IMG/VR virus record: IMGVR_UViG_3300009158_000001
Coordinates: 1 to 64,000 of that record
Origin: a virus
Reading direction: 5' to 3' (one strand)
Length of the DNA: 64,000 nucleotides
The translations under genes were made by a program, and so were the position numbers. Of this stretch, positions 20,787 through 26,337 are shown piece by piece. Numbering within the stretch: position 1 is the stretch's first letter; every line of letters begins with the position of its first letter. The notes beneath the pieces were generated by a model that saw only the letters and a program-made list of their open reading frames with translations, searched no databases and was not told the origin of the DNA.

Positions 20787-21092
20787 ATGGCAACCTTTAA
20801 TAAATACTTCGGTGGCCTTCAGGTAACTGACGGCAAACAATATGAATTGGATAATGCAATACCAGATGCAACTGGCAAAACAAGTGTTAGACATATTTGC
20901 ACTGTCAGCAAAGGATTCAGAACATTTGTTATGTTAAGAATTCGAAAAGGCCTAGAAGAGAAATGGTATTTAAATGAAACTACATCTGGTCAGCCAGAGA
21001 TGATTGAGAACGATGAAGAGTATCGTGAGATAGCTAAGTTTGTCGATGACTGGCTTGCTCAGATTAGTGGCATTAAATTCGGTCAGCAATGA
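20787..21092 (+). CDS. Hypothetical protein
   Basis: 101 aa ORF tightly packed between its neighbours. Confidence 0.7.
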   Translation: MATFNKYFGGLQVTDGKQYELDNAIPDATGKTSVRHICTVSKGFRTFVMLRIRKGLEEKWYLNETTSGQPEMIENDEEYREIAKFVDDWLAQISGIKFGQQ

Positions 21093-21649
21093 TTTATGCA
21101 CAGAATGCAAGTTCCTACCATCGCAAAATGGGAGAACTTCTTGAGCAGATGAACTTTGGTGGCTTAGGTATATATCAGGAACATATTGTAAAAGATATAT
21201 GTCCAGAACATCCAAGCCCTCTTGATCGTTTTGACTTTTATATTCCTAGTCTAAATCTAGTAATAGAAGTCCACGGAGAGCAACATTATAAAGCTGCAAC
21301 CTTTGGTGGTATATCTCAGCAAAAAGCTGATTTTAACTTTGCCAAAGGATCCCTCAGGGATACTGATAAAGCTTTATCGGCTAAGAAAGCAGGGCTTATT
21401 TATATAGCATTTAGTTATAAAGATAAGTTTACACAAGAAGTGTTTGACAACAAACATAAAGAAGCTATACTTGAACTAGAGAACAATGGTTTTCAACAAG
21501 TAATCCAAGAGCCAAATCAAACTATCCTTGATCATAGAAAACGTGTATCTTCTATAAATAAAGAATATGCACAACGCGTATATCAAGAGCAAAAAGAAAA
21601 TGGAAAATCTGAATTTAAATCACATACAGGTTTCTTCAAAAAGAAATAA
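21089..21649 (+). CDS. DUF559/Vsr-like PD-(D/E)XK endonuclease
   Basis: RFDFYIPSLNLVIEVHGEQHY ... RDTDK motif. Confidence 0.75.
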   Translation: MIYAQNASSYHRKMGELLEQMNFGGLGIYQEHIVKDICPEHPSPLDRFDFYIPSLNLVIEVHGEQHYKAATFGGISQQKADFNFAKGSLRDTDKALSAKKAGLIYIAFSYKDKFTQEVFDNKHKEAILELENNGFQQVIQEPNQTILDHRKRVSSINKEYAQRVYQEQKENGKSEFKSHTGFFKKK

Positions 21650-23096: not shown

Positions 23097-23110
23097 AAAT
23101 GGAGATTAAA

Positions 23111-23662
23111 ATGAATAAGATTAAGTTTTCCCTAGTTTCGTTTCTTGCTACTCTACTTGTAGCTTCAACTGCCTATGCCACTGAGTGTGTCACAACGGCT
23201 GACTGTGCCACAGGCGAGACCTGCCAGGCTGTGGCCAGCGCTGAGTGTCCTCCCTGTGCTGAAGGTTCAGCCTGTGACTCCTGTGCTACAGAGATCCTTG
23301 CTTGTGTCCCCGAGGCAGTCCCTGCTCCTTGCGATACCGCTACTTCAGGTTCCGGTTCAGGTTCTGAGGGCTCAGCTGCCGTTGATCCTGATTGTGGATC
23401 TGGCGACCCTGCAGGTAGCGGTTCAGGTTCAGGTGAGGTTATTCCCGTAGACGGCAGTGGTTCTGGCGCTGGCGCTGACGCTGGCGCTGATACCGCTCTT
23501 CCCGAGACTGATGGTAGCGGCTCAGGAGCGGCCGTCTCTGCTGATAAAAGCAAAGAGGAAAGTGGGTGTTCAGTGGTTTCTAATACTGCTAGTGTCTTCG
23601 GTATTTTTGCTATGATTGGTACTATTCTATTTCTTCGTAGACGTAATACAATTTCCAAGTAA
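23111..23662 (+). CDS. Secreted Cys-rich surface protein with MYXO-CTERM-like sorting signal
   Basis: Sec signal MNKIKFSLVSFLATLLVASTAYA. Cys-rich head, acidic GSGSGS linker, then ESGCSV + hydrophobic helix (VFGIFAMIGTILFL) + RRR. Confidence 0.8.
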   Translation: MNKIKFSLVSFLATLLVASTAYATECVTTADCATGETCQAVASAECPPCAEGSACDSCATEILACVPEAVPAPCDTATSGSGSGSEGSAAVDPDCGSGDPAGSGSGSGEVIPVDGSGSGAGADAGADTALPETDGSGSGAAVSADKSKEESGCSVVSNTASVFGIFAMIGTILFLRRRNTISK

Positions 23663-23699: not shown

Positions 23700-24239
23700 A
23701 TGGAAGCCGATATTAAATTAGTTGATCTTAGAAAAGAAACATTAGGTACAGTTAGAGAGGCAATTAAGGTTGCTGCTACACTTGGCCCTAATGGCTTCAA
23801 GTTCTTTGTGAATAAAAACTTTATTAAGAATGGTCTTATTATTACAAAGATTGTTCCTGTTACAGGAGACGAGCCACCTAAGACACAAGATATTCTAAAC
23901 TACATGGGTCTTAAGAATCTAAAGAAGACCCTAGAGTTTGCGAAGAAGGTTCTCGTTGAAGATGGCGAAGTGACTGTTGAAGAGAAGTTTGTTCCTGTTA
24001 TTCATGCAACTCAGACCATAGAAGAAAAGGTAGAAGATTCTTTACCTGAAACTCCTGAACAAGTAGTCACTGAAGAGCCAGAAATTGCTCTTGCCGAAGA
24101 GACACCTCTAGTCGAGGAGTTAGAGGCTGCTTTGCCTGCAGATAAATCAGATGAAGTTGAGCAGCCAAAGGAAGAAGTTCCTCTCTGGTACAGTAAGAAG
24201 CGTAAATCAAAGAAGACTTATACTGAGGAGTCTGAATAA
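23700..24239 (+). CDS. Hypothetical protein with acidic low-complexity C-half and basic tail
   Basis: 179 aa, AAGGA SD, stop overlaps the next ATG. Confidence 0.75.
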   Translation: MEADIKLVDLRKETLGTVREAIKVAATLGPNGFKFFVNKNFIKNGLIITKIVPVTGDEPPKTQDILNYMGLKNLKKTLEFAKKVLVEDGEVTVEEKFVPVIHATQTIEEKVEDSLPETPEQVVTEEPEIALAEETPLVEELEAALPADKSDEVEQPKEEVPLWYSKKRKSKKTYTEESE

Positions 24240-24676
24240 TGCCTGGTCTATCTTACAGTAAAAAAGATGGCAAGGAATTACAAACCTACTACTACAGCCC
24301 TGAACTTGGTATTTTTGAGTTTCCATTTGTTTTTGATACTATAGTCGAAGGCGAACCTGTTCCAGGTCCAGGGGACAGAACCCAAGCAACTCTAATCAAT
24401 TGCTCTGCTTTGTCCGCTGGTCGAACAAAGACTATAAGACTTATAGCATATGACCTTACTAACTCAAATGTTATGCTCAATTTATGGTTTGCAGAAACAA
24501 AAGAAGAAATTCAACAGGCAGTTGCCACAGGAAATCCTGCTCAGCTCCCAATGATGCAAGGTGCTATGGATATATCTCTTCCAGTCTCCTCAAGCTGGAT
24601 TGCTGTTGATTATGACAGTTCTTTGACTGGAACAATTTCTACTTCTAGTTTTAATCTGATACTTTTGATAGCTTAA
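24239..24676 (+). CDS. Hypothetical protein (paralog A)
   Basis: 145 aa. Shares AGR...I.L, NLWFA(E/D)...(Q/N)AVA..P and S..(I/M)A(V/I).YD with 24796..25224. Confidence 0.75.
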   Translation: MPGLSYSKKDGKELQTYYYSPELGIFEFPFVFDTIVEGEPVPGPGDRTQATLINCSALSAGRTKTIRLIAYDLTNSNVMLNLWFAETKEEIQQAVATGNPAQLPMMQGAMDISLPVSSSWIAVDYDSSLTGTISTSSFNLILLIA

Positions 24677-24693
24677 TTTAAGTATAGCAAAGG

Positions 24694-24728
24694 AAACCCA
24701 ACCATTAATTTGGTTGGGTTTTTTATTA
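24694..24728 (+). terminator. Intrinsic terminator
   Basis: AAACCCAACCA-TTAATT-TGGTTGGGTTT followed by a T-tract. Confidence 0.85.
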
Positions 24729-24795: not shown

Positions 24796-25224
24796 ATGAA
24801 TTGGGTAAATAAAACAGATAAAAAAATTCAAGCTTTCCACTGGCATCCTCTTGCCGAAATTAGTGACCTTGATTTTATGAATGGCGCTGGAAGTATTGAG
24901 AGTACTAATGCTATTGATTTTCTTGAGCTTTCCGATTCTCGCCGCGCTGGTCGTTCAGCCATAAAATTACACATGAATACGCTGTATAGCGATGGCATGG
25001 ATAGAGTATCTGTTTATAATCTATGGTTTGCTGATTCACCTCAAGCTTTAGCTAATGCTGTTGCAAATGATCCTCCAACAGAAATTATATGCAGCTCTTG
25101 GCCATTTGGACTACCAGTTATAATGACATTTAATATATCTACTCGGTATATGGCTATTAATTATGATCCAAATAAGACAACCCACGATCCAAACTATACA
25201 TCAATTTCAATCTACGCTTACTAA
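24796..25224 (+). CDS. Hypothetical protein (paralog B)
   Basis: 142 aa with a perfect AAGGAGGT SD. Shares motifs with 24239..24676. Confidence 0.8.
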   Translation: MNWVNKTDKKIQAFHWHPLAEISDLDFMNGAGSIESTNAIDFLELSDSRRAGRSAIKLHMNTLYSDGMDRVSVYNLWFADSPQALANAVANDPPTEIICSSWPFGLPVIMTFNISTRYMAINYDPNKTTHDPNYTSISIYAY

Positions 25225-25236
25225 GTAGATTGAAGC

Positions 25237-25280
25237 AAAAGAAAACCCCAGTCATTAATTTGGCTGGGGTTTTTTACTTT
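25237..25280. terminator. Bidirectional intrinsic terminator where the two gene blocks converge
   Basis: AAAAGAAAACCCCAGTCA-TTAATT-TGGCTGGGGTTTTTT, with an A-tract before and a T-tract after. Confidence 0.88.
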
Positions 25281-25288
25281 TATCTATT

Positions 25289-25489
25289 CTACTTCTTTTC
25301 TAGTTTCTCAACCCTTGCAGTTAGGTCTGCCAGTTTACTATTCGAATCTTTCTGCTCCTGCTCAATTACTGCTTTGAGAGCACCTAGTTGTCTTAGCTTT
25401 GGGATATTCTCAATAATCTTTTGAAGATCATTAATACGTTTCTCAATTGCAGCAAGTCTTTCTAGTACATAATTATTATCTATGGCCAT
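25289..25489 (-). CDS. Small coiled-coil protein at end of lysis cassette
   Basis: 66 aa heptad pattern, GGAGGAG SD, no transmembrane segment or lipobox. Confidence 0.7.
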   Translation of the reverse strand: MAIDNNYVLERLAAIEKRINDLQKIIENIPKLRQLGALKAVIEQEQKDSNSKLADLTARVEKLEKK

Positions 25490-25789
25490 TTACTCCTCCG
25501 GCTTATCTTGTTTAACTTTAGTATCAGTGCCTTGTGTTCTATCTATAACATTAGCACCCATATATAATCCTACAAGTCCTACAAAAGCTGCAGTAAATAC
25601 ATCATCACTCATTAACTGAGGAATAATGTAAAGACCAGTAGCTTGTCCAATAGGACTCATAAGATATAAGAACGTTAACGTATGCAAGGCCCAGTATACA
25701 AGACCAAGCTTACGACTAATGTAATTGCTTTTGTCCCCAAGAAAAGCTCCACTAAATCTTCTAAAGAGTATAGCAGAGAGATTAAACAT
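25490..25789 (-). CDS. Putative holin
   Basis: 99 aa with SRKL followed by 2-3 hydrophobic helices (…AAFVGLVGLYMGANV) and a charged C-tail. Coupled to the endolysin. Confidence 0.65.
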   Translation of the reverse strand: MFNLSAILFRRFSGAFLGDKSNYISRKLGLVYWALHTLTFLYLMSPIGQATGLYIIPQLMSDDVFTAAFVGLVGLYMGANVIDRTQGTDTKVKQDKPEE

Positions 25790-26337
25790 TACTTCTTACC
25801 TAAGTAACGTACAAATCCTACAAGCTTAGGCTCATCAAGGCTACGTGAGCGATGATAAACGCCACCACCTTCGCGGCTACCAGCTTCATTCGTATTACCT
25901 TCAATGGTTCCAAACTTAACAGCGCTAAGCATATTACCTTCGCAAATACCGCAGTGACCAACATGAGCTTTAACTCTGCCAACTCGAACTTGATCTACTT
26001 TAGTAGGATCATTACATAGCACAAATAGATCGCCGGGTTCAATCTTATACTTGCCAGACTTTACATCAGCAGGTAAGAAACGAAGAAAGTCTTCACGGCT
26101 TGCATTGCGCGTCCAGAAGCCCATTACGGCCGAGCTTTGCTTGCCAGCAGGGTTAGCACCAGGATAGGCCTGCCCGAAGACCCAAGCCACAAAGGCAGCG
26201 CACCAGGCGGCACCTACAAGCCAAGCACCAACGTACTTCTGAAAGTCCTCTACACGAGGACCTCTATTGCTATTAATAGGAACTTCACGAACACCAACTT
26301 CCTTTAGCGCAATATCTACAAGATTTTGATTTGACAT
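25789..26337 (-). CDS. CHAP-domain endolysin
   Basis: ALKEVGVRE...NSNRGPRV, AWCAAFVAW (catalytic Cys), PGDLF, GHCGI (His), TIEGNTN...REGGGVY. Confidence 0.88.
   Translation of the reverse strand: MSNQNLVDIALKEVGVREVPINSNRGPRVEDFQKYVGAWLVGAAWCAAFVAWVFGQAYPGANPAGKQSSAVMGFWTRNASREDFLRFLPADVKSGKYKIEPGDLFVLCNDPTKVDQVRVGRVKAHVGHCGICEGNMLSAVKFGTIEGNTNEAGSREGGGVYHRSRSLDEPKLVGFVRYLGKK

Follow-up and report, generated by a model that had tools for sequence, protein, structure and literature searches.

A Cys-rich phage protein with a C-terminal tag resembling the MYXO-CTERM sorting signal

Can a phage place one of its own proteins in the host envelope by means of a C-terminal sorting signal that the host cell processes? 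This question is raised by a gene in a 64,000-nucleotide stretch of viral DNA (the window; positions 1 to 64,000 of IMG/VR record IMGVR_UViG_3300009158_000001). The gene encodes an exported, Cys-rich protein of 183 amino acids (aa), and a first-pass annotation made from the sequence alone had likened its C-terminus to the MYXO-CTERM signal and had inferred for the phage a host in Myxococcota or a related deltaproteobacterium. MYXO-CTERM is a tripartite tag, composed of a signature with an invariant Cys, a helix, and an Arg cluster, and is carried by proteins with a signal peptide (PMC11980579; Haft preprint). For TraA, a protein of this class, Cys-dependent C-terminal cleavage by a myxosortase and surface display dependent on type II secretion (T2SS) have been shown experimentally (PMC11980579). 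The analysis reported here gives even chances to the reading that the phage protein is an envelope protein sorted through a C-terminal pathway of the host that belongs to the MYXO-CTERM class. Membership in that class is not established; judged by sequence comparison, the protein is built like its members and appears to resemble them most. A literature search found no paper on a phage-encoded MYXO-CTERM protein or on a phage-encoded C-terminal Cys-type (myxosortase-class) signal, and the protein is judged to be a new form of Cys-type substrate for C-terminal sorting, restricted to phages.

From N- to C-terminus, the protein consists of a predicted Sec-type signal peptide, a head domain, an acidic low-complexity stalk, and a tag made of a G-C-S signature, a hydrophobic helix and an Arg cluster (Table 1), all parts that the first-pass annotation had already made out. 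The signal peptide, judged by rule, has an n-region of MNKIK, a 14-residue hydrophobic core, and a junction, A-Y-A/T(E), that fits the -3/-1 rule. No lipobox is present, and the residue at -1 to Cys26 is Glu or Asp in all family members. The eight head Cys (positions 26, 32, 38, 46, 49, 55, 58, and 65 in the 183-aa numbering) reproduce exactly the spacing C-x5-C-x5-C-x7-CPPC-x5-C-x2-C-x6-CVP that had been read earlier. Two more invariant Cys follow, Cys74 at the head-stalk junction, just upstream of the stalk, and Cys95 inside the stalk. Together with the Cys of the tag they bring the total to 11, an odd number, which would allow ten Cys to pair and leave the tag Cys over. The mature ectodomain has a pI of 4.05, with 22 acidic versus two basic residues, and the stalk differs in length among homologs through indels. 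The tripartite architecture thus stands at the extreme C-terminus of a protein that, by rule, also has a signal peptide. Its predicted helix (residues 162-186 in a 187-aa numbering explained below) lacks charged and Pro residues, the first Arg of the cluster is invariant, and the second and third are at least 90% conserved. G-C-S, helix, and Arg cluster are invariant or conserved in all 16 aligned members of the family.

The 183-aa gene is genuine and under purifying selection. A word-indexed search of 5.8 billion proteins retrieved 20 homologs with identities of 47-87%, several of them on contigs of 125-176 kb, and all of them appear to derive from a single clade of large low-GC phages. The 20 homologs keep the 11 Cys, the G-C-S, and the Arg cluster; across the family alignment (alignment A1, whose 16 members are also the basis of the detailed family counts given below, such as those of the NCBIfam scans) none of the 11 Cys varies, nor does the G-C-S or the first Arg. 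Compared with its counterparts in three related IMG/VR phages, the gene has a dN/dS of 0.15-0.2 as a whole, of about 0.05 in the head, and of 0.2-0.5 in the tag, which evolves fastest of all parts (dN 0.12-0.31, versus 0.03-0.07 in the head). The open reading frame (ORF) lies at 23111-23662, where it had been annotated. A second in-frame ATG is located upstream, at 23099, and would give the 187-aa numbering; the start is likely at 23111 rather than 23099, because a GGAG motif precedes 23111 at a suitable place for a Shine-Dalgarno sequence and all homologs in the alignment begin with MNKIKF.

An antisense ORF of 161 aa (23173-23658, minus strand) spans the whole gene and is open in the relative L002 too. 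It was rejected as the true gene, since the signal peptide, the helix, the conserved Cys, and the low dN/dS belong to the sense frame, and the best account of its openness is that the sense strand is GC-rich and of low complexity. The core of the gene is indeed richer in GC than its neighbours, as had been noticed (0.58-0.60, and 0.52 for the gene as a whole, versus 0.34-0.43). The excess resides in codon positions 1 (0.58) and 2 (0.63), whereas GC at position 3 (GC3) is 0.35, the same as in the neighbours, and it therefore reflects the content of Ala, Gly, Cys, and Pro, not a foreign origin. Import from a GC-rich donor was rejected on the same ground, with no sign of foreign codon usage.

Outside its clade the protein is nearly without relatives. 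No homolog was found among GenBank phages and PLSDB plasmids, and no family of Pfam, PHROGs, or PADLOC covers the protein; a Pfam match to Nodulin_late (E 0.014) was dismissed as noise from the signal peptide and the Cys. In a profile search of 1.84 billion representatives, the only matches were the protein's own cluster and one outlier, P0023, which is considered below with the head.

The family carries two types of tag. Type A reads G-C-S-[VTA]...F-G-x-F-A-M-I-G-T-L-L-F-L-R-R-R and type B reads G-C-S-[TA]-A-G-S-L-x-G-G-L-G-I-x-A-G-x-A-T-x-M-Y-M-R-R-R-K; the G-C-S and the Arg cluster are the sole features common to both. A comparison of the tags in alignment A1 (P0012, P0018, and P0020 versus the other members; positions 23561-23659 of the window) indicates that the two types have been swapped between lineages by recombination. 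For example, the head of P0012 is identical to that of P0002, a member of the type-A lineage, at 49 of 52 positions, and its tag is identical to that of P0020, of type B, at 26 of 30, whereas the heads of P0012 and P0020 share only 30 of 51 positions. The helix is exchanged while the G-C-S and the Arg cluster never change, as would be expected for a recognized signal rather than a passive anchor.

This behaviour bears most directly on the alternative that survives best, which is nonetheless judged unlikely, namely that the protein is a plain bitopic type I membrane protein of the inner membrane. Its helix would then be a permanent anchor, with the RRR obeying the positive-inside rule, the Cys-rich ectodomain would work in the periplasm, for example in a block of DNA entry like that of Imm, Sp, or SieA, and the G-C-S would have a structural or disulfide role. 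Phages commonly use small periplasmic proteins with a membrane anchor for exclusion, and several results reported below fit such a protein: on its own, the tail of the window copy fails to match TIGR03901.2 and hits generic anchor models only (LPXTG, E 0.042; PEP-CTERM, E 0.2), the myxobacterial matches are all sub-threshold, the phage has no sortase gene, and the homolog search of 185,579 species genomes pointed to no host with such a system. Against a permanent anchor stand the G-C-S, which stays unchanged at the edge of the membrane although one helix sequence is replaced wholesale by another between tag types, and the odd number of Cys, which leaves exactly the tag Cys unpaired. In addition, sorted surface proteins typically carry a long, acidic, disordered spacer ahead of the tag, and an independent, sub-threshold match to a second myxobacterial signature, TIGR04201, lies at the opposite end of the protein.

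Comparison with profile models points the tag toward the myxobacterial signals. The window protein matches NF045638 (E 0.0017) and NF045523 (E 0.015) of NCBIfam over its C-terminal linker and tag, and the four models most often matched across the 16 members are all myxobacterial: the MXAN_5453 family (12 of 16), TIGR04201 (10), the myxosortase-dependent phytase (9), and TIGR03901.2 (6, counted at E <= 1). The older GC_trans_RRR model gives three more matches among the 16 members. For TIGR03901.2, the MYXO-CTERM model itself, the best score in the family is 17.0 bits (P0020), followed by 15.7 bits in a relative (G003), against a cut-off of 20 bits; the P0020 match places the G-C on the signature positions. 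The GG, PEP, and LPXTG signatures are absent from the protein sequence, and GlyGly-CTERM, also named as a model to score, is not among the NCBIfam matches. In a language-model lookup the nearest clusters were MYXO-CTERM proteins of Myxococcota (score 0.84), a lead only.

MYXO-CTERM proteins of Myxococcota and Bradymonadales, which are served by the myxosortases MrtX, MrtC, and MrtP, share with the phage protein a signal peptide, a Gly before the invariant Cys, a helix free of charged and Pro residues, a terminal Arg cluster, and an acidic low-complexity spacer. They differ in that the phage copies score 15.7-17.0 bits versus the required 20, come from a 40%-GC phage, and have no cellular ortholog in the 185,579 species genomes, and in that the phage family, though small, has two interchangeable tag types. 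Membership would also call for a genome with a myxosortase (NF040914 core) and many other tagged proteins; the phage genome has neither, and the host would have to supply them. No CPBP/Rce1-like protease (PF02517) was found in it, so any processing of the tag must be the host's. In a crude scan of the 807 ORFs of the 174-kb genome, the Cys-rich gene was the sole gene-like ORF ending in a helix and a basic cluster, and no second tagged protein was found; the other raw hits were 11 short, spurious-looking ORFs (mostly 41-104 aa) without the Cys motif. Similarity to the phytase-like phosphatase NF045638 and to the MXAN_5453 family NF045523 concerns the last 70-110 profile positions, which align to phage residues 79-183 (187-aa numbering). 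The catalytic or globular parts are absent from the phage protein, and the scores, which the low-complexity linker may have inflated, are 17 and 14 bits versus cut-offs of 440 and 500.

Of the MYXO-CTERM tag claimed at the outset, the G-C-S/helix/RRR architecture and the myxobacterial character of the nearest models therefore stand, whereas no member reaches the cut-off of TIGR03901.2. Several observations weigh against assigning the protein to a MYXO-CTERM pathway. The window protein does not match TIGR03901.2 at E <= 10, whether searched whole, as the tail alone, or in a six-frame search of the genome, and every match to a hidden Markov model (HMM) is below its curated cut-off. The tail alone scores best with LPXTG_anchor (14.5 bits versus a cut-off of 15.9) and PEP_CTERM (12.6 versus 16), a generic helix-plus-Arg similarity. 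Sub-threshold matches to TIGR03901 and TIGR04201 also occur in 7-8 of 14 control genomes, none of which is a myxobacterium. The phage tag has a single Cys where MYXO-CTERM frequently has GCGC. Cultured Myxococcota and Bradymonadales are GC-rich, and the GC content of the phage is 40%. Searches of the 185,579 species genomes with alignment A1 as query returned no homolog and no link to a host. Finally, MYXO-CTERM has been reported only from Myxococcota and Bradymonadales (Haft preprint).

The low scores can also be read as lineage-specific divergence, which has been stressed for these signals: four distinct Cys-containing tripartite signals, each served by a separate CPBP enzyme, are described from lineages unrelated to one another, and the single TIGR03901.2 model is less sensitive in divergent lineages (Haft preprint). 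There is a second, still less probable alternative, in which the protein is a substrate of another or undescribed Cys-type sorting system, the host is a freshwater Gram-negative bacterium outside Myxococcota with its own CPBP or other protease, and the likeness to MYXO-CTERM is convergent or holds at the family level. The existence of those four systems, the sub-threshold TIGR03901.2 scores, the 40% GC of the phage, and the absence of the family from the species genomes all agree with it. The marks of the other three Cys tags are absent from alignment A1, however: it has neither the DP of JDVT-CTERM, nor the helix Pro of Synerg-CTERM, nor the C-G-P of CGP-CTERM. The corresponding models gave no NCBIfam match at E <= 1, and in NCBIfam release 20 no other CTERM model outscores the myxobacterial ones. 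The N-terminal Cys unit, furthermore, points independently to the myxobacterial TraA repeat.

That unit, the first of the head, has the form E-C-x3-A-D-C-x2-G-E-x-C and resembles TIGR04201, a model that was derived from TraA's Cys repeats (PMC3325183) and describes units of some 22 residues, each with three invariant Cys. The phage unit has C-x5-C-x5-C spacing, together with A/D-D-C and G-E-x-C. In a six-frame search of the phage genome, TIGR04201 matched at one place only (14.9 bits, E 0.009 per genome, cut-off 25; eight of 14 control genomes also have sub-threshold matches), and the 10 matches in the family are likewise all sub-threshold, the best reaching 21.4 bits (E 1.9e-4). Structure prediction adds little: the full-length AlphaFold model is poor (pLDDT 50.6), and the head modelled alone (pLDDT 64.2, about 80 over the first 20 residues) is a low-confidence knot with a two-strand hairpin. 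Foldseek searches of the head against the PDB returned only matches with E > 2 to generic small disulfide domains; no sequence relatives were found in the PDB, and a language-model atlas lookup with the head alone returned nothing.

The only head homolog outside the clade is P0023, a 179-aa singleton from a 1545-bp JGI metagenome contig, to which signal peptide and head align by hhalign with all eight Cys (probability 97%, E 3e-11) and which has a second TraA-repeat-like unit after the head. It was not located in the metagenome or viral collections searched. The C-terminal third of P0023, rich in Pro, Ala, Thr, and Arg, has the look of GC-rich DNA translated out of frame; the actual protein may have another C-terminus, possibly a sorting tag.

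TraA (MXAN_6895), the kin-recognition and outer-membrane-exchange receptor of Myxococcus xanthus, has a signal peptide, TIGR04201-type Cys repeats, and a MYXO-CTERM-type tail in the same order as the phage protein (PMC3325183). It differs in having nine repeats versus one or two degenerate units, and a long Cys-rich stalk versus a disordered acidic one. The phage protein also lacks the PA14 recognition domain, and the phage lacks a TraB/OmpA-like partner: neither PA14 (PF07691) nor OmpA (PF00691) has a match at E <= 1 in the 174-kb genome. The phage protein would thus be at most a headless mini-TraA, and homology between the two rests on sub-threshold scores.

A sorting pathway of this kind requires a suitable host. 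The host in Myxococcota that had been proposed is not demonstrated by these data, given the empty search of the species genomes and the 40% GC of the phage. The DnaE and primase of the phage have only remote matches, with less than 32% identity, to phages of unrelated hosts; no relatives of the phage were found in GenBank, and a literature search on jumbo phages of Myxococcota found nothing. A host with GC-richer codon usage than the phage is hinted at by two features: the seven tRNAs of the phage include Arg-TCT, Lys-TTT, Pro-TGG, and Thr-TGT, which decode A-ending codons that are heavily used in its genes, and an early-gene island beyond the window (115,269-131,000, which holds a 3763-aa ORF) has a GC3 of about 0.6, up to 0.77, versus 0.22-0.34 elsewhere. 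Motifs resembling Shine-Dalgarno sequences precede 47-60% of the phage ORFs, versus a background of 8%, and their frequency argues against a host in Bacteroidota. Taken together, a host in Myxococcota or Bradymonadia is tentatively favoured; another lineage with an undescribed Cys-tag system is a less probable but substantial possibility, and the absence of any sorting of the protein is somewhat less probable again.

Under the favoured reading of a MYXO-CTERM-class pathway, the processing steps, surface location, and function of the protein can be inferred from the observed architecture, conservation, and model similarity of a genuine gene, with the steps modelled on TraA (PMC11980579; Haft preprint). 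The gene would be transcribed together with the replication and recombination genes of the plus strand, and the precursor would be exported by Sec and cut by signal peptidase I after A-Y-A. In the periplasm, ten Cys would form five disulfides, shaping a small head and pinning the stalk. The C-terminal helix would transiently anchor the protein in the inner membrane, with the RRR in the cytoplasm, while the unpaired eleventh Cys, Cys153 of the G-C-S, would be lipidated; a host CPBP-family protease of the myxosortase type, acting within the membrane, would then cut off the helix and the Arg tail. After T2SS-dependent delivery to the cell surface, the acidic stalk would present the TraA-repeat-like head, most likely masking a receptor or contact site. 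The expected outcome would be superinfection exclusion, with progeny kept from adsorbing to doomed cells.

Analogy with other viral envelope proteins suggests surface masking or superinfection exclusion as the most likely role. The phage lipoproteins Llp of T5 and Cor mask receptors, and SasX is an LPXTG protein of a Staphylococcus prophage. Like the Cys-rich protein as envisaged here, they are small viral proteins, expressed early or in lysogeny, that host machinery places in the envelope and that alter the cell surface; they use N-terminal lipoboxes or LPXTG and sortase, in contrast to the putative C-terminal Cys-type signal of the phage protein. Interference with TraA-type contact is possible but weakly supported; the phage has neither a PA14 head nor a TraB-like partner. 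A bolder version is a long shot: a clade of large lake phages, infecting uncultured, Myxococcota-like social or predatory hosts, would plant a headless mini-TraA decoy, a Cys repeat on a stalk lipid-anchored via myxosortase and T2SS, and so disturb kin recognition or outer-membrane exchange. Such a decoy could cut the infected cell off from traffic in toxins or rescue, or it could block a receptor on the surface. No earlier case of a virus that manipulates self-recognition in bacteria would then be known, and the tag modules would track the sortase specificities of different hosts.

Cys-type C-terminal tags have only recently been tied to their proteases and have been described as housekeeping signals of cellular lineages. 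If the favoured reading holds, phages exploit Cys-type sorting to remodel the host surface, and the protein is a Gram-negative, C-terminal counterpart of Llp and Cor. Because the host must own the matching sortase and T2SS, the tag could then help to predict from sequence which hosts uncultured large phages infect. The protein would also be a natural substrate of minimal size (183 aa), with two variants of the tag on one passenger, with which tag recognition by myxosortases could be dissected. Should the head derive from TraA repeats, the question of viral tampering with bacterial kin recognition would arise as well.

Table 1. The Cys-rich gene, the parts of its product, and flanking signals (positions in the window; residues in the 183-aa numbering).
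Feature	Position	Strand	Evidence
Coding sequence (with stop codon) of the exported, Cys-rich 183-aa protein	23111-23662	+	ORF list, sequence, 20 homologs, dN/dS versus three related phages
Shine-Dalgarno motif GGAG, 5 nt before the ATG at 23111	23102-23105	+	Sequence
Sec-type signal peptide, residues 1-23, predicted cut after A-Y-A	23111-23179	+	Sequence rules; A-x-A conserved in homologs
Head domain with eight invariant Cys, residues 24-75	23180-23335	+	Alignment A1, dN/dS about 0.05, hhalign to P0023, AlphaFold
First Cys unit, resembling the TraA-type Cys repeat TIGR04201	23183-23230	+	Six-frame search
Acidic Gly/Ser/Ala/Asp low-complexity stalk, residues 76-150	23336-23560	+	Composition; predicted disorder, pLDDT <50
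Signature Gly152-Cys153-Ser154 of the C-terminal tag, after E-E-S	23564-23572	+	Invariant in 16 of 16 aligned members
Spacer and hydrophobic transmembrane helix of the tag, residues 155-175	23573-23635	+	Kyte-Doolittle mean 1.82; helix prediction
Arg176-Arg178 cluster (predicted cytoplasmic side), then five residues and stop	23636-23644	+	Alignment
First strong hairpin downstream that resembles an intrinsic terminator; the gene's transcription unit probably ends here	24691-24724	+	Terminator scan

The surroundings of the gene confirm that it is phage-encoded, as had been stated. The source record is a virus of 174,107 bp with direct terminal repeats, an estimated completeness of 100%, and 40.0% GC, and its genes include those for ribonucleotide reductase, DnaE, primase, RusA, endolysin, and baseplate. 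The Cys-rich gene is the last of a long plus-strand replication and recombination block, which contains ribonucleotide reductase, a DnaE-type polymerase, a primase-helicase, a methyltransferase, a homing endonuclease, and RusA. It starts 14 nt past the stop of the upstream ORF, and the terminator scan found no terminator between it and the hairpin at 24691-24724. The genes for tail and lysis, among them that of a CHAP-like endolysin (25789-26337), are on the opposite strand, and the gene order around the Cys-rich gene is kept in relatives. Relatives of the phage include the IMG/VR records IMGVR_UViG_3300032309_001546, 3300042868_005761, and 3300009152_000030. This context of replication block, terminator, and synteny indicates that the gene is probably expressed with the middle (replication) genes and that its product is probably not part of the virion.

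A lysis accessory, such as a unimolecular spanin bridging the inner and outer membranes, is suggested by a lysis cassette about 2 kb away (the endolysin and a small membrane protein at 25490-25789, both on the opposite strand) and by an exported N-terminal part with a C-terminal helix that recalls u-spanins of the T1 gp11 type, but it is extremely improbable, given the missing lipobox with Glu or Asp before the first Cys in all members, the position on the other strand in a replication unit with two strong terminators between gene and endolysin, and a disordered acidic stalk and five putative disulfides unlike those of known spanins.

Beside the endolysin, at 25289-25789 on the minus strand, two proteins are encoded, one of 99 aa that contains hydrophobic helices and a coiled-coil protein of 66 aa, which are candidates for the holin or spanin part of the lysis cassette. 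Upstream of the Cys-rich gene, a homing-endonuclease-like gene (PHROG 9084/559) at 21089-21649 on the plus strand lies between the DNA methyltransferase and the RusA resolvase, and occupies the same place in the relative L002. Downstream, two adjacent plus-strand genes, at 24239-24676 and 24796-25224, encode distant paralogs of 145 and 142 aa (24% identity, E 6e-07) with a common NLWFA motif. Each of the two is followed by a near-identical strong hairpin terminator with a ATTAATTT loop (24691-24724 and 25240-25275).

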